From positions 1 through 64,000 of the forward strand of contig CAWEJX010000015.1 in the NCBI GenBank assembly GCA_963809485.1: a stretch of 64,000 bases of DNA, given 5' to 3'. Shown here piece by piece: positions 6,631 to 22,924 of the stretch. Made by a program: the position numbers and the translations under genes. Numbering within the stretch: the stretch's first letter is position 1; each line of letters opens with the position of its first letter. Origin of the DNA: an uncultured Acidobacteriota bacterium. GTDB taxonomy: Bacteria; Acidobacteriota; UBA6911. The notes under the pieces were generated by a model. The model made no database searches. It was not told the DNA's origin and saw only the letters and a list, made by a program, of their open reading frames with translations.

Positions 6631-7599
6631 CTAGCGCGCGAGGGTGGGCGCGTACTGGTGCGTGAAGGCATGGAGGAGAGCTTCGTCATCGGCGTCGAAT
6701 CTGCTGCCCCGCTTATTCAGGACCTCCAGCACGCCAATGACATCGCCGTGGCTGTCCAGAATCGGCCCGGCAAGCAGGGTGCGCGTCCAATAGTCGGTCC
6801 GTATGTCCAGGGCCGGATCAAAACGCGACTCGAGGTAGGCTTCCTGCAGGTTAACGATTTCACGTGTCAGAGCGACCCAGCCTGCAATATCGGTTCCGGC
6901 CACTACCTTGAATCCGGCGGCCGGGTCCCCATCATCCACCTGAATAACCAGTTCTCCCGTTTCGGGGTTGCGCAGGAAAAAATAGGCGCGATCCGCGCGA
7001 AGGACTTCGCGTGCCCGGCGCACGATGTGATCCGGAGAATAGAGCGGCGCCTCCCGGAGGCTGCGTATTAAGTGCTTCGGAATCAGGTCATAGCGAATTT
7101 TGAGCAGAACCGAGGATTCCATTGCATAAGCCGAATGCCGCCGCGTGCCATCGGTGAAAAACTCAGTTTCACCCAAAACATCTCCGGGAAGTATTACGCC
7201 GGCCGGGTGCTCGGTTTGCCTTGCCGAGCGGGAAAGGAGCATCCGCCCGCTCAACATCACATAGGCGCTGTTCCCCCGCTGCCCTTCTGTGTAGAGCGTT
7301 TCCCCGGGTTCCAGCATTATCAGATCGGCCTTTTGCCCGATCCGCGTGAGTTCTTCTCTGTGCAGGTCCGCCAGCAATGGAAGCAAACGCATGCGGTCAA
7401 TGCGCTGCGATTCCAAAGCCTCTGCCAGCGCTTCTCTTTCCAGGCATTCGCGCTCTACCAGAATTTCTCCCAAAAGCTTTGCATTGCCGGATGCGGATTC
7501 CAGGCGCTGGATGGATAATGCCCATTCTATCTCCGACGAGGAGCAGGAAAGATATTCGCCGATCATGCGCAATTCTGGATACATCTCCCTGGAACACAT
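6631..7599 (-). CDS. MshEN-like + cyclic-nucleotide-binding + GAF domain protein
   Basis: N-terminal KLLGEILVERECLEREALAEALESQ; cNMP domain LYTEGQRGNSAYVMLSG...GDVLGE...RRHSAYA; GAF with IAGWVA...RFDPALD..TDYWTRTLLAGPI...GVLEVLNK...FDADDE; exact start uncertain. Confidence 0.75.
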   Translation of the reverse strand: MCSREMYPELRMIGEYLSCSSSEIEWALSIQRLESASGNAKLLGEILVERECLEREALAEALESQRIDRMRLLPLLADLHREELTRIGQKADLIMLEPGETLYTEGQRGNSAYVMLSGRMLLSRSARQTEHPAGVILPGDVLGETEFFTDGTRRHSAYAMESSVLLKIRYDLIPKHLIRSLREAPLYSPDHIVRRAREVLRADRAYFFLRNPETGELVIQVDDGDPAAGFKVVAGTDIAGWVALTREIVNLQEAYLESRFDPALDIRTDYWTRTLLAGPILDSHGDVIGVLEVLNKRGSRFDADDEALLHAFTHQYAPTLAR

Positions 7600-7839
7600 A
7601 ACTGCCGGAGCCTCCGGAGGGGCAAAATTCCTTCGTTTGCGGCGGGGAGCTTCAGTACGCGAGGGGAACCCCCCTAGGCTCTATCATACACCCGATCAAG
7701 TCCGCGGAACAATATAAGCAAGGTTGAACGTGGAACGTTTAAAGTGGAACGATGAAGAGCGTGGAATCAGTTTTAGCGGGCTGAAAATACGTTTTCAGGA
7801 AAAGACGATCTAAAGCTCAACGCGGCAAAGCTTTTTGTT

Positions 7840-10800
7840 TCAATAGGATAAAGGCTCGACGCGCTCCAGACAGATCCTGAATACATTTCCTTTCTGCGGG
7901 TCGGTTTCCATTTCGAGCCATCCCCCGATGCGATCAATCATTTCCTTGATGGAGGCGATGCGCCTTTCCGGCTGGACGTTGCAGCCGTCGGCGCTGACCA
8001 CTATCTGCATATAGGCACCAGGCTGCATGCCCGAAGGCGTCTCCGACGGGAGTTCCGTGTTGGAGGTCTCCACGGTCACAGTTCCACTCAAGGGAAGGAT
8101 CTCCCGCGAATTGGCCACAAGGCTGCACAGCAGCTGGATAATCTCCTGCCGGTCAGCCAGGACCAGAGCCGGACGGGTTGACAGCACAATCTGGAAATCA
8201 ATATCGGCGCCTGCGAGGCTGCGCAGGAGTGTCTCGTTACCGGTCAGCGTTTCATTGACGTTGAGAAGCTCGGGTTCCCTGTCCGCCTTACCGGCGAAAG
8301 AAAGAAACTGATGCGCGTGTTTGATGCCGCGGCTGGCATCGCTCCCCATCATTTCCGCTATCCGCTGGACTGATGGGCTGTCTTCGGGAGTCTGCTTTAT
8401 AAGCTCGACGCAATGAGCCAGGGATGCGCACAGATCCTTGAGGCTTTTTACGGTTTCTATTGCCAGGTCCCTGGCGGATTCCATGCGGTGCGCGCGCCGG
8501 ACCTGCTCGCTTCTATGGTGTATGCGAGAAATGTCCGCAAAAACCCTTTCTACTGCAGGATCTCCTCCGGTAGGAGACTGCAAAAGCACGGCGCTTTCCT
8601 CGATGCGTACCATCCGGCCGTCCTTGCGCAATGCCGACCATTCAATCTTTTCCAGCCTGCCTTCTTTATGAAGGCGCTCATTCAATGCACCCTCGAAGGC
8701 AAAAATTTTGAACGGATGCTCGCTGCCCGGCGCAAGAGCCTCCGCTGCTCCGGAAAATCCAAAAATCCGGGCGGCGGCATCGTTGCAGTCCAGAACGCGC
8801 CCATCAGGGGCAGCCGACACAATTCCCATGGAGGTGATTTGGCATATCCTTTGGTAGCGGGCATTCAAATCGGCAGATTCGGATTTGAGCCTTTCATACT
8901 CGCTCTTCAGTCTCTCAAGCTGCTTTTGAATTGACTCCAGCCGCGCCTCTCCGGTTCGGTTTTCTTCAGATAGCCGAGCGACGCCGTCTTCGGATTCCTC
9001 AAGCGCGGCCTGGAGAGTGGTTCCATGATCCTCCACGGCTTTTAGCTTTTGCTCCAAATCCATTCGAGCGGCATCCCAGCCTGCGCGCTCCGCGTTGTAT
9101 TCCTCAGCGAGCCGTGCGAGCCGGATTTCCACTTCCTGAAGCGCGTTTTGCATGGCGATGCGCTGTTCGCCTGCGGCTGTTTCCTTTTGCTCCAGATCCT
9201 GCCGGATGCGATCCCAGCTGGATCGTTCCACTCCTTGTTCCTCGCCAAGTTGCGCCATCCGGATTTCGGCATCGCGCAAAGCCGAATGCAGACCGCTGCG
9301 CTGCTCTTCCAGGGCATAACGCTCGCGCTCCAGTTCGGCCCGTGCCTCATCCCACCCGGTCCGCTCGGCATTGTGTTCCTCGGTAAGCTTTGCAAGGCGC
9401 GATTCGGCTTCCTGCAGGGCGTTCGACAGGATTCTCCGCTGCTCCTCGCCCGCTCTAAGATCTCTCTCCAGCTCCTGCCTGGCCTGCTCCAAAACCGTGC
9501 GTTCGGCGGCCTGCTTCCTGGCGAGCGCAGCAAGGCGCGATTCGGCTTCCTGCAGTCCGCTTTGCAGGATTGCCTTTCGCTCTTCGGCCGCTCTGTGCTT
9601 GTTCTCCAGTTCGGAGCGAGACCGCTCGAATGCCGAGCGCTCCGCCTCATAGTCCTCAGTCAGCTGAGCGACACGGGCTTCAACCTCCTGCAGCGCACTC
9701 TGAAGGGCATTCCTCTGATCTTGCACCGATTGACATTCCCGTGCCAATTCAAGACGATCCCGATCCCATTCGAGGCGCTCCGCAGTCCGTTCATGATTCA
9801 AAGATTCGATGCGGGACTCCGCGGCGCTGAGCAGCGCTGCCAGTTTTTCTTCGGCTGCCCGATGCTTCTGCTCCAGTTCAAGCCGGGTGTTTTCCCAATG
9901 GCTGCGTTCCGCGGTTTGCGTTTCCGTGAACTGCACGATGCGGGCTTCGGCCTCCCGCAGCGCAGCGTCACGCTGCTCGCCCGCTTCCTTCAGCGTGCGA
10001 TCGAATTCAGCCCGCAGCGCCTCCAATTCTGCGACCCGGGCCGCCTGCTCTTCCGTAAGCCATGCCATACGGCCTTCGGATTCCTCAAGAGCCTGCTGCA
10101 GAGATGCCCGCTGCTCCTCCGCCGCCCGGCTCATCTGCCCCCATTCCGACCGGGCACTCTCCCATACGGTACGTTCAGCGGCGGCCTCTTCGGCTAGCTT
10201 CGCCAGGCGCGCCTCCGTCTCATGCAACGCCGTCTGCAAAACTGAATTCCTGTCCTCCGAAGACTTTTGTCTTTGCATCAGGTCCAGACGGGAAGCCTCC
10301 CATCCGGCCAGTTCTGCACTGTAGGATTCCGTGAGCCTGACGATTTTTGATTCCGCTTCCCGAAGCGCCGCCAGCCGCTGTTCTTCGGCCCCCTGATGCT
10401 TACGCTCCAGTTCGAGGCGTGCAGCCTCCCATGCCGACGACTCTTCGCCGTACTTCCCGGAAAGCTGGGTGAAGCGGGATTCCATTTCCTGCAGGGCTGC
10501 CCGCAAGGATACTCTCTCCGCTTCCGTGCTTTTGAATTTCTGCTCGAGCGCCAGGCGAACGTCATCCCAGTTCTGGCGGGCTGATGCAAGTTCCTCGTTA
10601 AGCTGCGCAATCCGCATTGCTTCGTCCCGTAGCGCAGACTGCAGCTGTTCCTCAGCCGTCCGTTGCCTCTGCTCCAAATGCAGACGTGCCCGATCCCAAT
10701 TGCTGCGTTCGGTCAGCTGCTCTTCCGTTAGCCTGGCAATGCGGGCTTCGGACTCCTGCAATGCATTCTGCAGCGATGCCCGCTGCTCTTCCGCTGCCTG

Positions 10801-13800
10801 CCGCCCCTGCTCAAATTCCTGCCGCGTGCTTTCCCAGGCGCTGCGCTCCGCATTCAACGCCTCTGTGAGCTGCGCAATCCGGGACTCCGCTTCCTGCATC
10901 GCGGCGTTGCGCTGCCCTTCCGCTTCCCTTTGTTTGCGCTCGAAATCGGCCCGCAGAGCCTCCAGTTCCGCGCGTTGCGCTCCATGCTCGTCCGAGATCT
11001 GTGAAATACGGGCTTCGGCTTCCTGCAAGGCATTCTGCAAAGATGCCCGTTGCTCCTCCGCCGCACGGCGCCCCTCTTCAAGTTCCTGCCGGGTACTTTC
11101 CCATGCGCCGCGCTCCGCATTCAGCGCCTCCGTGAGTTGGGCGATCCGGGACTCCGCTTCCTGCATCGCGGCGTTGCGCTGCCCTTCCGCTTCCTTTTGT
11201 TTACGCTCAAACTCGGCCCGCAGAGCCTCCAGTTCCGCGCGCTGCGCTCCATGCTCGTCCGAGATCTGAGAAACGCGGGCTTCGGCTTCCTGCAAGGCAT
11301 TCCGCAAAGATGCCTGTTGCTCCTCCGCCGCACGGCGTCCCTCTTGAAGTTCCTGCCGGGTACTTTCCCATGCGCCGCGCTCCGCATTCAACGCCTCTGT
11401 GAGTTGCGCAATCCGGGACTCCGCTTCCTGCATCGCGGCGCTACGCTGCTCTTCCGCTTCCTTTTGTTTGCGCTCGAAATCGGCCCGCAGAGCCTCCAGT
11501 TCCGCGCGCTGCGCTCCATGCTCGTCCGAGATCTGAGAAACGCGGACTTCGGCTTCCTGCAAGGCATTCTGCAAAGATGCCCGCTGCTCTTCCGCCGCCT
11601 GCCGTCCCTGCTCAAATTCCTGCCGCGTGCTTTCCCAGGCGCCGCGCTCCGCATTCAGCGCCTCCGTGAGCTGCGCAATCCGGGACTCCGCTTCCTGCAT
11701 CGCGGCGTTGCGCTGCTCTTCCGCTTCCCTTTGTTTGCGCTCGAAATCGGCCCGCAGAGCCTCCAGTTCCGCGCGTTGCGCTCCATGCCCGTCCGAGATC
11801 TGAGAAATACGGGCTTCGGACTCCTGCAAGGCATTCTGCAAAGATGCCCGTTGCTCCTCCGCCGCACAGCGCCCCTCCTCAAGTTCCTGCCGGGTACTTT
11901 CCCAGGCGCCACGCTCCGCATTCAACGCCTCTGTGAGCTGCGCAATCCGGGACTCCGCTTCCTGCATCGCGGCGTTACGCTGTTCTTCCGCTTCCTTTTG
12001 TTTACGCTCAAACTCGGCCCGCAGAGCCTCCAGTTCCGCGCGTTGGGCTCCATGTTCGCCTGAGATCTGAGAAACGCGGGCTTCGGCTTCCTGCAAGGCA
12101 TTCTGCAAAGATGCCCGTTGCTCCTCCGCCGCACGGCGCCGCTCTTCAAGTTCCTGCCGGGTACTTTCCCAGGCGCCACGCTCCGCATTCAACGCCTCTG
12201 TGAGTTGGGCAATCCGGGACTCCGCTTCCTGCATCGCGGCGCTGCGCTGCTCTTCCGCTTCCTTTTGTTTGCGCTCGAAATCGGCCCGCAGAGCCTCAAG
12301 TTCCGCGCGCTGCGCTCCATGCTCGTCCGAGATCTGAGAAACGCGGACTTCGGCTTCCTGCAAGGCATTCTGCAAAGATGCCCGCTGCTCTTCCGCCGCC
12401 TGCCGTCCCTGCTCAAATTCCTGCCGCGTGCTTTCCCAGGCGCCGCGTTCTTCAGCAAGCTTCTGCTCAATCTGGGCAATCCGCGATTCAGCCTCTTTGA
12501 GGGCCGCGTGCAACCCTTCATTGCGGGATTCAGCCAGTTTCAGATCGGCTTCAAGTTTTCGCTGACGGAGATCCTGGTCGGACTCCTGGTTCAAGTATTG
12601 AGACTCGGCATCCAGCAGGGCCTTGACCACTCCCTTGTTTTTGCGGGAATCCGCTTCCTCTGCGGCTTCGCTGCTCTCGCGGGCCGGGGCATGCTGGATA
12701 ACGGTCAGCGCGGCTGTCGTTCCATTGGAATCCCTCCGAATGGAGACTCCGCGGAGTTCTATCCCTGGGACCGATCCATCGAGTCCCTTCCAGCCAAAAC
12801 GAAGGGAACCAGTCGCGCCCCCACAGATGGTTTTGAGAAAATCAAGGATGCGTTTCCCCTCTTCCCTGGGCGCTAGGTCAATGAGGCTTTTTCCAACAAC
12901 CTGTTCCAGATGTGCGCCGCCCATCAGCTTCAGCCCGGCGAGGTTCACGGCCAGAAAGGTTCCTTCGGCATTGATCACCGCTATGCCCACCGGCATGGTG
13001 TCCACTATCTGCCGGAGCCGGTCTTCGCGGGATTTCAGGAGGCTTCTCTCGCGGGCCAATTCCAGGCGTTTCAATTCCCTTTCGATCGCGGGCACCAGTC
13101 TACTGAAGTAGTTTCCCGTCTTGGCGATGCAGTCGGTCGCGCCCAGCTTCATCGCATTGACCGGAGTGACTTCATCTCCCGGATTTGTGAGGAGTATGAT
13201 CGGAATCTCCGGCCTGCGATTATTGATCTCCTTGATGGCATTCAATGTCTGGATGCCGGACAGCGCCAGATCGATGATGATGACATCGGGCATCGGGGCG
13301 CCGCTATCCGGAAGCTTTAAGGATCCTTGGTCCGAAATAACCGCGGGCTCCAGCTTCCATCTGGGCATGCCGCTCAACCGGCGCTGCATCTGTTCGAAAT
13401 CGCCGGCGAAGAGAAGCTGAATGGGTTTGGCCTGGGGAATGGAGTTTTTCTGATGCCGTTCCCTGGCGCTCTTTAACGCCTCTGCCAGTGAAGGGATAAA
13501 ATCGGCTTTCTTGTGAACGAAACCGTCAATCCCCGCGCCGGACAGCTCTGCCGAGGGTGCGTTTTCCGATGCACCCAACAAAACCACCAGACCTGCAGGC
13601 AGCTTTTCGTTCCGGACAGCCGTGGCCAGACCGACGGCGTCCGCGCTCGAGACCGAAGTGCCCAGCAAAATCACATCGTAGCGTCCCGGAGCAGCCATGC
13701 GGAGAAGCGCGTCCCGCGCAGTGGCTGTGACATCCATGCGAATTGAAGGGTCCGATCTGGTCAATTCACCGCTGAAAAAATCCGCTTCTCGAAGATCGTC

Positions 13801-13821
13801 GCTGACAAAGAGTATTTTCAT
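7840..13821 (-). CDS. Giant REC-REC-PAS-coiled-coil-PAS-degenerate histidine kinase protein (1993 aa)
   Basis: Two receiver-like domains, a PAS (IVDTMPVGIAVINAEG), ~1250 aa of E/A/R/Q/L-rich heptads, a second PAS, and a HisKA/HATPase-like C-terminus lacking H-box and G2 motifs. Confidence 0.8.
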   Translation of the reverse strand: MKILFVSDDLREADFFSGELTRSDPSIRMDVTATARDALLRMAAPGRYDVILLGTSVSSADAVGLATAVRNEKLPAGLVVLLGASENAPSAELSGAGIDGFVHKKADFIPSLAEALKSARERHQKNSIPQAKPIQLLFAGDFEQMQRRLSGMPRWKLEPAVISDQGSLKLPDSGAPMPDVIIIDLALSGIQTLNAIKEINNRRPEIPIILLTNPGDEVTPVNAMKLGATDCIAKTGNYFSRLVPAIERELKRLELARERSLLKSREDRLRQIVDTMPVGIAVINAEGTFLAVNLAGLKLMGGAHLEQVVGKSLIDLAPREEGKRILDFLKTICGGATGSLRFGWKGLDGSVPGIELRGVSIRRDSNGTTAALTVIQHAPARESSEAAEEADSRKNKGVVKALLDAESQYLNQESDQDLRQRKLEADLKLAESRNEGLHAALKEAESRIAQIEQKLAEERGAWESTRQEFEQGRQAAEEQRASLQNALQEAEVRVSQISDEHGAQRAELEALRADFERKQKEAEEQRSAAMQEAESRIAQLTEALNAERGAWESTRQELEERRRAAEEQRASLQNALQEAEARVSQISGEHGAQRAELEALRAEFERKQKEAEEQRNAAMQEAESRIAQLTEALNAERGAWESTRQELEEGRCAAEEQRASLQNALQESEARISQISDGHGAQRAELEALRADFERKQREAEEQRNAAMQEAESRIAQLTEALNAERGAWESTRQEFEQGRQAAEEQRASLQNALQEAEVRVSQISDEHGAQRAELEALRADFERKQKEAEEQRSAAMQEAESRIAQLTEALNAERGAWESTRQELQEGRRAAEEQQASLRNALQEAEARVSQISDEHGAQRAELEALRAEFERKQKEAEGQRNAAMQEAESRIAQLTEALNAERGAWESTRQELEEGRRAAEEQRASLQNALQEAEARISQISDEHGAQRAELEALRADFERKQREAEGQRNAAMQEAESRIAQLTEALNAERSAWESTRQEFEQGRQAAEEQRASLQNALQESEARIARLTEEQLTERSNWDRARLHLEQRQRTAEEQLQSALRDEAMRIAQLNEELASARQNWDDVRLALEQKFKSTEAERVSLRAALQEMESRFTQLSGKYGEESSAWEAARLELERKHQGAEEQRLAALREAESKIVRLTESYSAELAGWEASRLDLMQRQKSSEDRNSVLQTALHETEARLAKLAEEAAAERTVWESARSEWGQMSRAAEEQRASLQQALEESEGRMAWLTEEQAARVAELEALRAEFDRTLKEAGEQRDAALREAEARIVQFTETQTAERSHWENTRLELEQKHRAAEEKLAALLSAAESRIESLNHERTAERLEWDRDRLELARECQSVQDQRNALQSALQEVEARVAQLTEDYEAERSAFERSRSELENKHRAAEERKAILQSGLQEAESRLAALARKQAAERTVLEQARQELERDLRAGEEQRRILSNALQEAESRLAKLTEEHNAERTGWDEARAELERERYALEEQRSGLHSALRDAEIRMAQLGEEQGVERSSWDRIRQDLEQKETAAGEQRIAMQNALQEVEIRLARLAEEYNAERAGWDAARMDLEQKLKAVEDHGTTLQAALEESEDGVARLSEENRTGEARLESIQKQLERLKSEYERLKSESADLNARYQRICQITSMGIVSAAPDGRVLDCNDAAARIFGFSGAAEALAPGSEHPFKIFAFEGALNERLHKEGRLEKIEWSALRKDGRMVRIEESAVLLQSPTGGDPAVERVFADISRIHHRSEQVRRAHRMESARDLAIETVKSLKDLCASLAHCVELIKQTPEDSPSVQRIAEMMGSDASRGIKHAHQFLSFAGKADREPELLNVNETLTGNETLLRSLAGADIDFQIVLSTRPALVLADRQEIIQLLCSLVANSREILPLSGTVTVETSNTELPSETPSGMQPGAYMQIVVSADGCNVQPERRIASIKEMIDRIGGWLEMETDPQKGNVFRICLERVEPLSY
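10740..12450. repeat. Intragenic tandem repeat, 267-bp (89-aa) unit, about 6.4 copies, with an 801-bp higher-order period
   Basis: Near-identical units recur every 267 bp (10854, 11121, 11388, 11655, 11922, 12189); the variant GCCGCGTGCTTTCCCAGGCG recurs at 10821, 11622 and 12423. Confidence 0.95.
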
Positions 13822-13963: not shown

Positions 13964-14509
13964 CTACCAATCATTTAATTTAAGCATTTCCACCAATACC
14001 GCATCCTGAGCCTCGCAAGCGGTAACCTCGAGAATGCCCCCAATGCGGTCAAAATCCTGCATGGATGGTTCGTATGCACTACCGGCGCCAGGTTCGCCGG
14101 ATGAAGCGGATTGTCTTTTGAAAGGCTGCGAATTGTCATCCTTGGAATCAGACAGGTCGTCCAGAATGTGCAGGGGATTCTCAAATTCCACTGCGGACTG
14201 GTATCGCGGAATCCCTTTCAAAGAAGCGATGGATGAGCGAAGAACATGACCGGCGATCTGTATAACCCCTTCAATGGTAACGACTCTTAGGAGAATCTTG
14301 GTGCCCGGCCGCATGCGCATATCCGATTCCAGGAGTGCGCCGCCCCGCGAAATATTGACTACCTCAAGCTCAGATCCTCCGTTTGATGTGACGCCTTTCA
14401 GCGAAGGGACTTCCGAGATTTTATGGCGAGGCCATTGCCTCGTGCTCGGGCCCGAATATTGCTTGGGTTTCTTTTTAAGGCCGCCTTTCGGACTGAACGG
14501 ATTCTCCAT
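13964..14509 (-). CDS. PilZ domain protein (c-di-GMP receptor candidate)
   Basis: RQWPR (RxxxR) and VNISRGG (D/NxSxxG) motifs; start placed at ATG 14509, uncertain. Confidence 0.75.
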   Translation of the reverse strand: MENPFSPKGGLKKKPKQYSGPSTRQWPRHKISEVPSLKGVTSNGGSELEVVNISRGGALLESDMRMRPGTKILLRVVTIEGVIQIAGHVLRSSIASLKGIPRYQSAVEFENPLHILDDLSDSKDDNSQPFKRQSASSGEPGAGSAYEPSMQDFDRIGGILEVTACEAQDAVLVEMLKLNDW

Positions 14510-17595: not shown

Positions 17596-18987
17596 ATGAC
17601 GGAATTTCAGGACCGGACGGAAAGCCTTTGCCCTCACTGCCTGCGCCGCATCCCTGCCCGCAGAATTACGGAAAACGAATCCGTGTACCTGGAAAAAAGC
17701 TGTCCCGAGCACGGCGACCTGGGGAGGACTCTGCTCTGGAAAAACAATCCTATAGCCTACCGCGAGTGGAACAGGCCGGGAGGAACTGCCGTCGAGCCAA
17801 AATCCGCGGCAGAAGCGCTTGACGGATGCCCGTACGGCTGCGGCATCTGCGCCAACCACAGGCAGGAAACCTGCACCGCCATCCTCGAAGTCGCCCGCGA
17901 CTGCAACCTGAGCTGCCCGGTCTGCTTCGCCGGTTCGGCCAGCGCCACATCCCCCGATCCCGACCTGGACCGCATATCCCGGATGCTTCAGATGCTGCTG
18001 GAAAACGCCGGCCCCTGCCCGATCCAGTTGAGCGGGGGAGAGCCTACTCTAAGAGATGACCTGCCGCAGATTGTGGCGCTTGCCCGGAAAATGGGATTTG
18101 GCCACGTGCAGGTCAATACCAACGGCATCCGGCTGGGACAGGATCCGGATTACGCAAGCGCCTTGAAAGACGCCGGCGTTACCAATTTTTTCCTGCAGTT
18201 CGACGGGACCACGGACGAAATTCATCGCCGGATCCGAGGCGCGAACCTGATGGATCACAAAATCAGTGCGATCGCGCGCTGCGCCCAACTCAAAGTGGGC
18301 GTCGTACTCGTGCCCACGATTGTGAAAAATGTCAACGACCACCAGATCGGGGCCATTATCCAGTTTGCAAAAAAATGGATCCCGACCGTCAAAGCCGTGC
18401 ATTTTCAACCCATCACCTTCATGGGCCGGTATCCGGTTGAACCCTGCAACGACGACCGCGTCCTGATCCCCGATATCCTGTGCGCCATCGAGAGGCAGAC
18501 CGGCAGCGAACTGCGCGCAGAAAATCTGATACCATCCGGCTGAGAGTCTTCCCTCTGCTCCTTCTCGGGCCTCTCCGTGTTGAGAGAAGACGGCCGGCTG
18601 ATCGCAACTTCATATTTTGATGGGACAGATGATTCTGCCAAAACGCCTAAAACAGATGCCGCAGAGCATGCAAGGGAGTATGTGCGCCGGCACTGGAAAT
18701 ACTGCGAGTCCAGGCCCGGATTCGGCCCATCCACCGAACTGCTCGAGCGCGCCCAGAGTCATTTCCTGTGTGTTTCGGGAATGGCTTTTCAGGATGCATG
18801 GAACATCGACCTTGAGCGTCTGCAGCGATGCTGCGTCCATGTCCTCACCGCCGAAGGCGGGCTGATCCCGTTCTGCGCCTATTACCTGACCGGCAGTGAT
18901 GGACACAGGCTGACCCGAGGCAATCATCATGGCCGCAGTATGCCACGAGCAGCATTTGGTAACGCTGACGAATCCCGACTTCTATAA
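17596..18987 (+). CDS. trsS: Radical SAM (seleno)protein, TrsS/MJ0619(Tes)-like, TGA 18541-18543 probably read as selenocysteine (463 aa)
   Basis: TESLCPHC...KSCPEHG, CPYGCGICANH, CNLSCPVC, QLSGGEPT; the frame continues after TGA as ESSLCSFSG...FQDAWNIDLERLQRCCVH...LIPFCAY. Confidence 0.8.
18544..18591 (+). promoter_or_regulatory. Candidate bacterial SECIS hairpin
   Basis: GTCTTCCCTC (18546-18555) pairs with GAGAGAAGAC (18582-18591) with one mismatch; weak apical CGG/CCG stem whose loop starts with G 26 nt after the UGA; folded by eye. Confidence 0.45.
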
Positions 18988-22462: not shown

Positions 22463-22924
22463 ATGAAGGAACAGGGGGCCTATCTTTTGTATCTTTACGT
22501 GAAACGCCCCATAACGGTCTGTGCAGGATCTCTTGGGCAAATATCTTTCCCTCAAGGGCATTATGTCTATGTGGGAAGTGCCCGCAGAGGGATCGGAGGA
22601 CGCATTGCGCGCCACAGGCGTCTGGCTCAAAATAAGGCGGGCAGGCTGCACTGGCACCTGGACTACCTGCTCGTTCATCGCCTGGTGGAGTGGACGGGAG
22701 ACGAGGCGCTGTCAGGGAAAAGCGAGTGCGATGTGTCCCTATATATCGCGTCGAGCAAAGGCGTGTCCGTTCCGGTCCCCCGCTTCGGGGCCTCCGACTG
22801 CCGGGCGGGCTGCAAATCCCACCTTTATCGTTTAAGCAGATCAGGCATTCATAATTTGGCAGCACCATTCAAATTTGCGAGGAGAAAGGAAAATGGACAA
22901 GGCTACCGCGCAGCTCTACCGTGA
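22463..22924 (+). CDS. GIY-YIG (Uri/DUF123) nuclease family protein
   Basis: GAYLL...GHYVYVGSA...RIARH...HWHLDYL...EC...FGASDC..GCKSHL. Confidence 0.85.
   Translation: MKEQGAYLLYLYVKRPITVCAGSLGQISFPQGHYVYVGSARRGIGGRIARHRRLAQNKAGRLHWHLDYLLVHRLVEWTGDEALSGKSECDVSLYIASSKGVSVPVPRFGASDCRAGCKSHLYRLSRSGIHNLAAPFKFARRKENGQGYRAALP

Follow-up and report, generated by a model that had tools for sequence, protein, structure and literature searches.

A giant protein with degenerate two-component domains and a long predicted coiled coil, encoded next to a PilZ gene in uncultured Acidobacteriota

We analysed a window of 64,000 nucleotides from an uncultured Acidobacteriota bacterium of the UBA6911 lineage (positions 1 to 64,000 of contig CAWEJX010000015.1, assembly GCA_963809485.1). 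On its minus strand, positions 7840-13821 form a single uninterrupted open reading frame (ORF) of 5982 bases, which encodes a protein of 1993 amino acids (aa), here called the giant protein. In this protein and its family, every catalytic centre of a two-component pathway is degenerate on one chain. A first-pass annotation, made from the sequence alone, had read the gene as a catalytically dead hybrid kinase with receivers, a coil and a kinase-like end. The gene and its parts are real, and the dead kinase module proved to be a trait of the whole family. The term hybrid kinase fits less well, since the receivers stand at the N-terminus and the protein therefore does not have the usual hybrid-kinase order. 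Because all phosphotransfer centres are degenerate, the folds are nevertheless under selection, and a PilZ-domain gene is a constant companion, we favour with moderate confidence a non-catalytic, rod-shaped scaffold or adaptor that binds partners through its heads, with cyclic di-GMP (c-di-GMP) acting via the PilZ protein to set its assembly or choice of partner. The adjacent PilZ gene, which the first-pass annotation did not contain, is the best functional clue.

Degenerate signalling domains at both ends

Pfam recognised Response_reg in two stretches of the giant protein (54.2 bits, cut-off 30.2), PAS at aa 268-321 and PAS_9 at aa 1666-1745, and gave no match to HisKA or HATPase_c even at E<=1. 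The NCBIfam model for CckA aligned to aa 1620-1952 with 55.9 bits against a cut-off of 1000. A transmembrane segment is absent (maximal 19-residue hydropathy 1.45). The gene is single-copy in its genome, where the next match to the C-terminal 353 aa has an E-value of 9.4e-11 and 25% identity.

The last 353 aa were modelled with AlphaFold2 (AF2) on a 13-sequence genus-level alignment (A1). The model has a mean predicted local distance difference test score (pLDDT) of 82.7 and shows, in the numbering of this piece, a PAS domain (25-123), two DHp helices (125-169 and 176-204) and an alpha/beta CA domain (211-349). Foldseek matched it to full-length PAS-histidine kinases (best E 2.7e-17) and superposed it on the CA domain of CckA (5idm) with a root mean square deviation of 3.1 A over 168 columns and a template modelling score (TM) of 0.68 by target; the DivL structure 4q20 was also among the matches. 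By sequence, the nearest solved chain is the DHp-CA part of CckA (5idj, E 4.6e-13). As modelled, the C-terminal module retains the DHp hairpin and the CA sandwich fold of histidine kinases. Profile searches and structure prediction of the two termini thus bear out the first reading: receivers are found, and the kinase fold comes without a HisKA or HATPase_c match.

The chemistry of this module was assessed in an alignment of the query with 154 relatives (the 150 best library matches and P0002-P0005). Canonical sequences with the His in LAGGVAHDFNN and a G2 box make up 97 rows, and 49 rows have neither His nor G2 box. Of the remainder, four have the His with an unmatched G2 pattern, two are fragments lacking the DHp region, one is a misaligned multi-PAS protein that was set aside (P0150), and one is a 346-aa fragment without lid that has a His at the H-box position (P0042). 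The loss of the H-box described earlier is borne out by K1792 at the His site of the query; in the query and the 49 relatives this site holds K (23), P (10), Q (8), R (5), E (2), S (1) or N (1). The His of fragment P0042 is probably a chance occurrence at a freely varying site. As no column of the module exceeds 55% His among family rows, there is no alternative conserved His, which the first reading had named as a possible refutation.

The nucleotide pocket is remodelled as well. The G1 region of the query reads SADGC where DxGxG is expected, and the stretch from G1 to the last helix counts 24 residues compared with 44 in a canonical relative, i.e., it is 20 residues shorter; the F box and G2 box are gone from the query and all 49 relatives. 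The earlier statement that G1 is degenerate and G2 missing therefore holds. A small correction concerns the N box, whose second Asn is retained in the query but missing from most of the family (present in 3 of 13 genus-level sequences and 20 of 51 family rows). The former ATP site holds a family-specific motif, D-G-C-x-V-Q-P-E-R-R. In A1, the D, G, P, E and both R of this motif do not vary. Judged by sequence and model, the kinase module is catalytically degenerate, and loss of the phosphotransfer chemistry predicts it to be non-catalytic. The adjacent PilZ gene, and the fact that no solved protein is closer than CckA, prompted a look for a c-di-GMP site of the CckA type in the pseudo-CA domain. 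CckA contacts the nucleotide on the CA sheet edge through Y514, K518 and W523, as described in PMC5026420. In the giant protein the corresponding positions are K1959, D1963 and W1968. Of these the Trp alone agrees, and it is present in 12 of 51 family rows, so that two of three contacts differ and the candidate was rejected.

To place the module among known proteins, a library of 1.84 billion proteins was searched with the C-terminal piece. At E<=0.001, 105,661 proteins matched (ordinary kinases), and 73 did so at E<=1e-30; the 49 relatives that share the loss of His and G2 box are from this library. Pfam applied to 20 relatives showed REC/PAS...PAS in 19 (P0132 had no match) and a kinase domain in none of the 20 (E<=0.001). 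Mean pairwise identity is 51% for CA, 48% for DHp, 53% for PAS, 37.5% for receiver 1 and 43.5% for receiver 2, as taken from two alignments of partly different genomes. Since the dead CA domain matches the PAS domains in its degree of conservation and the same architecture recurs in 49 relatives, the gene is not in decay. The comparison of orthologues thus upholds the conserved loss of the His and ATP motifs and speaks against strain-specific degeneration; as far as these sequences tell, the loss of the kinase motifs is an ancient family trait.

The N-terminal head was modelled from the first 400 aa on an eight-sequence alignment (A2; AF2, pLDDT 81.7, predicted TM score 0.41). The model shows two (beta-alpha)5 receiver folds, and a 37-residue helix links receiver 2 to the PAS domain. 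Catalytic positions were counted in 22 distinct relatives with an N-terminus. In receiver 1, Gly54 (codon 13660-13662) does occupy the acceptor position, at the end of predicted strand 50-53, as had been noticed at the outset. However, this position holds Asp in 18 relatives, Gly in two and Glu in two; the loss of the Asp is real in the query but lineage-specific rather than family-wide. The T/S position of receiver 1 is not conserved, and K104 is retained in 20 of 22. Receiver 2 of the query keeps D184, T212 and K234 beside a degraded acidic pocket, just as first described: the first acid of the metal pair is Gly140, a Gly found in 22 of 22. Across the family the acceptor D is present in 19 of 22, T/S in 19 of 22 and K in 21 of 22. 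Both receivers fall short of at least one of the five catalytic residues family-wide. A competent receiver has five active-site residues (DD, D, T/S, K) and a pseudo-receiver misses at least one, following the definition in PMC12632262, by which both receivers classify as pseudo-receivers with the receiver fold, as predicted, and the Pfam score intact. Among solved relatives, receiver 2 is nearest in sequence to the receivers of NtrC, NtrC1 and DctD. The top Foldseek matches of the whole N-terminal model are to the tandem-receiver protein PleD (E 1.2e-11). Both heads of the giant protein keep their folds under purifying selection.

Table 1. Positions and supporting evidence for the giant gene, its parts and the upstream PilZ gene.
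Feature	Position	Strand	Basis
Giant gene, 1993 aa, REC1-REC2-PAS-coiled coil-PAS-pseudo-DHp-pseudo-CA	7840..13821	-	ORF list, translation, Pfam, NCBIfam
Receiver 1, aa 1-126, predicted pseudo-receiver	13444..13821	-	AF2 (beta-alpha)5 fold, alignments
Receiver 2, aa 134-250	13072..13422	-	Residue counts in relatives; solved relatives by sequence
Long helix out of receiver 2 (aa 239-275) and N-terminal PAS (aa 279-377)	12667..13071	-	Pfam PAS/PAS_8/PAS_4, AF2, Foldseek PAS matches
Predicted coiled-coil rod, ~aa 386-1650, 43/46-aa units with conserved Trp	8872..12666	-	Composition, Trp spacing, periodicity
Recent tandem array, 267-bp (89-aa) unit, 6.4 copies, 90% matches	10741..12447	-	Tandem Repeats Finder
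C-terminal PAS, aa 1665-1763	8533..8829	-	Pfam PAS_9, AF2
Pseudo-DHp helical hairpin, aa 1765-1844; K1792 at His site (codon 8446-8448)	8290..8529	-	AF2 helices, alignments
Pseudo-CA domain, aa 1851-1989; ATP lid a 7-residue loop	7855..8271	-	AF2, Foldseek, alignments
Motif D1945-G-C-x-V-Q-P-E-R-R1954 in pseudo-CA	7960-7989	-	Genus-invariant in A1
PilZ-domain gene, 181 aa from Met (ORF could start at GTG 14671)	13964..14509	-	Pfam PilZ, motifs

The predicted coiled-coil rod and its repeat array

The heads are separated by 1266 residues between the PAS anchors with no proline at all, in good agreement with the about 1250 aa of coiled coil estimated earlier. The composition of this segment is dominated by E (19%), A (17%), R (12%), L (10%) and Q (10%). 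Its Trp residues are spaced by 89 six times and then by 46 and 43, with a unit size of 43-46 aa. The hydrophobic period is 3.56 (89/25, i.e., 89 residues per 25 turns), with a power of 9.1 compared with a maximum of 1.34 in 100 shuffles. All 13 family members tested have their periodicity peak at 3.54-3.57 and above all of their own shuffles, with G014 being marginal (1.6 vs. 1.44). Such a period fits heptads with regular stutters, and the single peak indicates that the predicted seam stays in phase over the whole length of the coil. Reckoned at ~0.15 nm per residue, the rod would be ~185-190 nm long if it forms one continuous two-stranded coil. A fold-back coil of the SMC type was considered and rejected: NCBIfam SMC models on the middle part stay far under their cut-off (59 bits vs. 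567), and these matches were taken as compositional.

Part of the coil has grown recently. The six full copies of the array are 88-96% identical in DNA, with a ratio of non-synonymous to synonymous polymorphism (pN/pS) of 0.17 between copies. Unit pairs 1/4, 2/5 and 3/6 are closest (93-96%, other pairs 88-93%), and this pairing points to a recent duplication of a three-unit block of 801 bp. The array is confined to the N-terminal half of the coil. The figure of 6.4 copies rests on the assembly, as contigs of the public runs X1, X2 and X4 break up within the array (one bin is uncovered in X1 and X2), had no joints reported and gave no independent copy count.

Across 33 relatives the distance between the PAS domains ranges from 299 to 1266 aa, i.e., four-fold, with the query protein being the longest. 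This variation excludes a conserved ruler length and makes the ruler of defined length, one of the roles first suggested, unlikely. A length of exactly 915 aa is found in P0002, P0005 and P0019, which belong to different 50%-identity clusters, and further lengths recur (519-522, 406-408, 824-826 and 884-885), so that certain lengths of the coil may persist inside sub-lineages. Quantised lengths in multiples of 44.5 or 89 were also considered, but the remainders were patternless with the approximate anchors used.

Family distribution and the PilZ neighbour

In a survey of genomes at E<=1e-30, a match to the giant protein was present in 21 of 29 genomes of the same genus and in 5 of 21 genomes of other genera of the same family, and in none of 86 genomes from 21 other families of the class (0/85 without G034, an unpublished genome). 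One of the five matches in other genera (G124) is 27% identical, with an alignment that ends at 316, and has the appearance of an ordinary kinase. Completeness is 76-100% in the eight genomes of the genus that gave no match. Among the surveyed genomes, the protein family is thus found only in one family of uncultured Acidobacteriota. The best cluster in the ESM Atlas is an Acidobacteriota cluster as well and is probably the giant-protein family itself. Three public soil and wetland runs yielded contigs, ~95% alike, that cover the giant and the PilZ gene outside the repeats, and all six indels listed for them lie at 7667-7803, outside the ORF. Orthologous copies that look interrupted occur in four genomes: in G018 the N- and C-terminal parts are not one ORF (L022 3682-8988), in G121 they are in different frames (L062), in G131 there is one in-frame TGA (G131:C16), and in G134 the C-terminal match is split between two ORFs (G134:C2); these breaks may stem from sequencing errors in the repeats or from real decay.

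The protein encoded directly upstream matches Pfam PilZ (PF07238) with 24.7 and 25.5 bits at a cut-off of 22.5. The motifs of PilZ-type c-di-GMP receptors are RxxxR and (D/N)xSxxG. Both are invariant in nine of nine orthologues (R24/R28 and N/D-x-S54-x-x-G57), making this protein a putative c-di-GMP receptor with intact motifs. A PilZ gene lies directly upstream on the same strand in all 12 other genomes whose contig includes the start of the giant gene, its 5' end (G005, G012, G014, G015, G017, G018, L024 and L038, and in four other genera G115, G116, G121 and G131). It is the sole neighbour common to all eight loci compared. The other neighbours are housekeeping enzymes found in three to four of the eight loci each (UbiD, a carboxylesterase, MutS2, a carbamoyltransferase and an alcohol dehydrogenase), and no kinase or response-regulator gene is conserved beside the giant gene at these loci. 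The 142-bp gap between the two genes contains no terminator-like site; counts in the promoter and terminator scan were at the level of shuffled sequence. A complex prediction with chains of the N-head, the C-head and PilZ gave a score of 0.02, which is no answer and evidence neither way.

The PilZ orthologues have a further peculiarity in their C-terminus, which ends in Asn-Asp-Trp in seven of seven complete sequences (codons 13967-13975) and may be a docking peptide. In G131, two tandem PilZ genes lie upstream of the giant gene (L063 4056-5114). Downstream of the giant gene, at 6631-7599 on the minus strand, the window encodes a protein with a cyclic nucleotide monophosphate-binding and a GAF domain. 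It is not conserved beside orthologues and would place a second nucleotide-messenger sensor beside the PilZ/giant pair in the source strain. Two plus-strand genes farther away appear to be unrelated, encoding a radical-SAM protein with HMPTM-type zinc ribbon (17596-18543) and a DUF123 protein (22463-22924). An anti-phage defence function was searched for with PADLOC and rejected; the sole match was PbeC in the coil (E 2e-8), where no stretch passed alone, and the PilZ protein had no match. A preprint on the family UBA6911 (10.1101/2021.04.09.439258) predicts its members to be Gram-negative rods, most genera of which have genes for type IV pili, and a PilM gene is present on another contig of the source genome.

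A proposed scaffold and its alternatives

We propose that the giant protein is a non-catalytic descendant of two-component signalling proteins that would serve as a long rod-like scaffold or spacer. Most likely, two such chains form a parallel, in-register pair through a single coiled coil without breaks. This is the usual arrangement between PAS and DHp domains, and it is favoured here by the restriction of the recent array to the N-terminal half of the coil, since in a fold-back hairpin the two halves would have to grow together. The rod would carry the pseudo-receiver/PAS head at one end and the PAS/pseudo-kinase head at the other, and its length would range from ~45 to 190 nm across the family. 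The dead heads most likely serve as binding modules, by analogy with DivL, PsmA and FrzS, and the upstream PilZ protein most likely places the assembly under the control of c-di-GMP. What the sequences show are the architecture, the degenerate motifs and their conservation, the change in length through repeats and the linkage to PilZ; the parallel pairing, the role as a scaffold, the binding of partners and the control by c-di-GMP are inferred from them.

Each feature of this proposal has a counterpart in known proteins. FrzS and AglZ of Myxococcus xanthus, the scaffolds named for comparison at the outset, likewise have a degenerate N-terminal receiver followed by a long dimerising coiled coil and function via partner binding and not via phosphotransfer; the match is one of architecture. 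AglZ, which we take to be a receiver and long coiled-coil scaffold in polarity and motility, is here grouped with FrzS. FrzS itself is described as a polar scaffold with pseudo-receiver and coiled coil (PMC1974792, PMC9811614, PMC12632262). The giant protein differs from both in its second receiver, two PAS domains and C-terminal pseudo-kinase head, in having a PilZ protein instead of MglA or SgmX as putative partner, and in belonging to another phylum; FrzS is not among the best 60 of 199 solved relatives of the N-terminal profile. The comparison is fair as a functional analogy. PleD shares the tandem-receiver head, and a PleD-type pair includes one non-phosphorylatable adaptor domain. However, the giant protein has no GGDEF output and a more degenerate first receiver, and the TM-scores to PleD are low (0.24-0.29) because the domain arrangement differs.

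For the C-terminal head, the nearest family by sequence and fold are the soluble PAS kinases of the CckA type (LAGGVAHDFNN), to which the 97 canonical relatives belong. In contrast to these, the giant protein has lost His, F box and G2 box, and its chain stops right after CA with no receiver following. DivL of Caulobacter is similar in using PAS-DHp-CA without the phospho-acceptor His as a binding or sensing module, in line with the fold match to 4q20. In DivL, which is anchored in the membrane and lacks both receivers and a giant coil, a Tyr takes the place of the His, whereas in the giant family the residue at the His site is variable (K/P/Q/R and others) and the ATP lid is deleted. PsmA, a Streptomyces hybrid histidine pseudokinase, is described as residing at the DivIVA polarisome beside Scy and FilP and as having no autokinase activity (PMC12963549). 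By its description there, PsmA resembles the giant protein in its variable His-site residue, degenerate ATP motifs and ATP-incompatible lid (PMC12963549). In Streptomyces, however, pseudokinase and Scy/FilP are separate chains, which the giant protein fuses, and N-terminal receivers and a linked PilZ gene are particular to the giant family.

Several points weigh against the proposed scaffold. Any partner of the heads is putative, and the dimeric, parallel and continuous state of the coil is predicted from its sequence. Receiver 2 keeps D, T/S, K and usually one acid and may still be phosphorylated. The N-box Asn of the query and the invariant Asp-Gly in the old pocket could still serve to bind a nucleotide or another ligand. 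Roles that depend on a fixed distance are hard to reconcile with a length that varies four-fold. Finally, if the interruptions in the four copies from G018, G121, G131 and G134 are real, the gene is dispensable in some lineages.

The retained residues of receiver 2 (D and T/S each in 19, K in 21 of 22) speak for an alternative in which the protein is a reverse-signalling pseudokinase like DivL within a live phosphorelay, controlling another kinase allosterically, with the coil being only a dimerising spacer. Either receiver 2 would be phosphorylated at D184 by some kinase, or the pseudo-DHp/CA head would sense a phosphorylated response regulator. The similarity of receiver 2 to NtrC/DctD-type receivers, which signal through a following helix, the well-conserved DHp helices and DivL 4q20 among the Foldseek matches agree with this, and DivL is described as a precedent for a kinase output domain that acts as a response-regulator sensor (PMC4211667; bioRxiv 10.1101/812529). 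On the other hand, the Gly at the first metal-binding acid of receiver 2 is without exception, no kinase or response-regulator gene is conserved next to the giant gene, and allostery over 45-190 nm of freely varying coil is hard to picture. We regard this alternative as possible but unlikely; it overlaps with the scaffold proposal and differs mainly in that phosphorylation is involved.

The coil itself raises another alternative, namely a cytoskeletal coiled-coil-rich protein like crescentin, FilP and Scy, whose filaments or lattice would shape or organise the cell, with the heads regulating assembly. The very long proline-free coil with regular stutters (89 residues per 25 turns) resembles these proteins, which also have hundreds of coiled-coil residues with a regular non-heptad insert; in Scy, the repeat is 51 residues. 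The signalling heads of the giant protein are absent from these proteins, and we know of no PilZ linkage for them. The occurrence of a histidine pseudokinase, PsmA, at the Streptomyces polarisome together with the coiled-coil proteins Scy and FilP, as described in PMC12963549, lends some weight to this idea. Nevertheless, our data contain no sign of higher-order assembly, globular heads at both ends together with a PilZ signalling partner suit an adaptor better, and the family is narrow and absent from eight of the 29 genomes of its own genus (E<=1e-30, 76-100% complete). This makes a cytoskeletal protein rather improbable. A more speculative form of assembly, to which we give little credence, would have the pseudo-receiver head dock onto the pseudo-DHp/CA head of the next dimer via the ancestral kinase-regulator interface, so that the rods would form a head-to-tail polymer, a cable or lattice in the cytoplasm, with joints gated by c-di-GMP-loaded PilZ. 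If true, this would be a cytoskeleton-like polymer made from a fossil two-component pair, its mesh size reset by repeat expansion.

An active atypical kinase or phosphatase, using another residue and a remodelled nucleotide pocket, could draw on the N-box Asn of the query and, in the old ATP pocket, on an Asp-Gly and two Arg that do not vary. We consider it highly improbable, as there is no conserved His anywhere in the module, all 49 relatives have lost the lid together with its F and G2 boxes, the family does not conserve the N-box Asn, and the His-site residue is freely variable, as is described for the pseudokinase PsmA (PMC12963549). Last, a decaying gene or a repeat assembly artefact, at which the interrupted-looking orthologues and the breaking of short-read contigs inside the array might hint, is refuted as far as sequence can show by the open frame of 5982 bases, the pN/pS of 0.17 between repeat copies, the 49 relatives of the same architecture and the ~95% alike public-run contigs that cover the non-repeat parts with all six listed indels outside the ORF.

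Pseudo-receivers, pseudo-kinases and receiver-coiled-coil scaffolds are known kinds of proteins; what is new is their fusion, the four-fold range in length driven by repeats, and the fixed PilZ partner. In line with the earlier remark that the architecture is not a recognised one, a full-text literature search, whose coverage largely leaves out subscription journals, found no description of the architecture or the family. Pseudo-kinases and pseudo-receivers are common in bacterial genomes, and a mode of action is known for few of them. This family is therefore a clean system in which to ask what role dead signalling domains play. The length of the rod between the heads is reset across species by tandem repeats, and the natural length variants, of ~45 to 190 nm, allow a direct test of whether distance matters. 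The giant protein would also open a first way into the cell organisation of an uncultured group of Acidobacteriota that is widespread in soils and wetlands.

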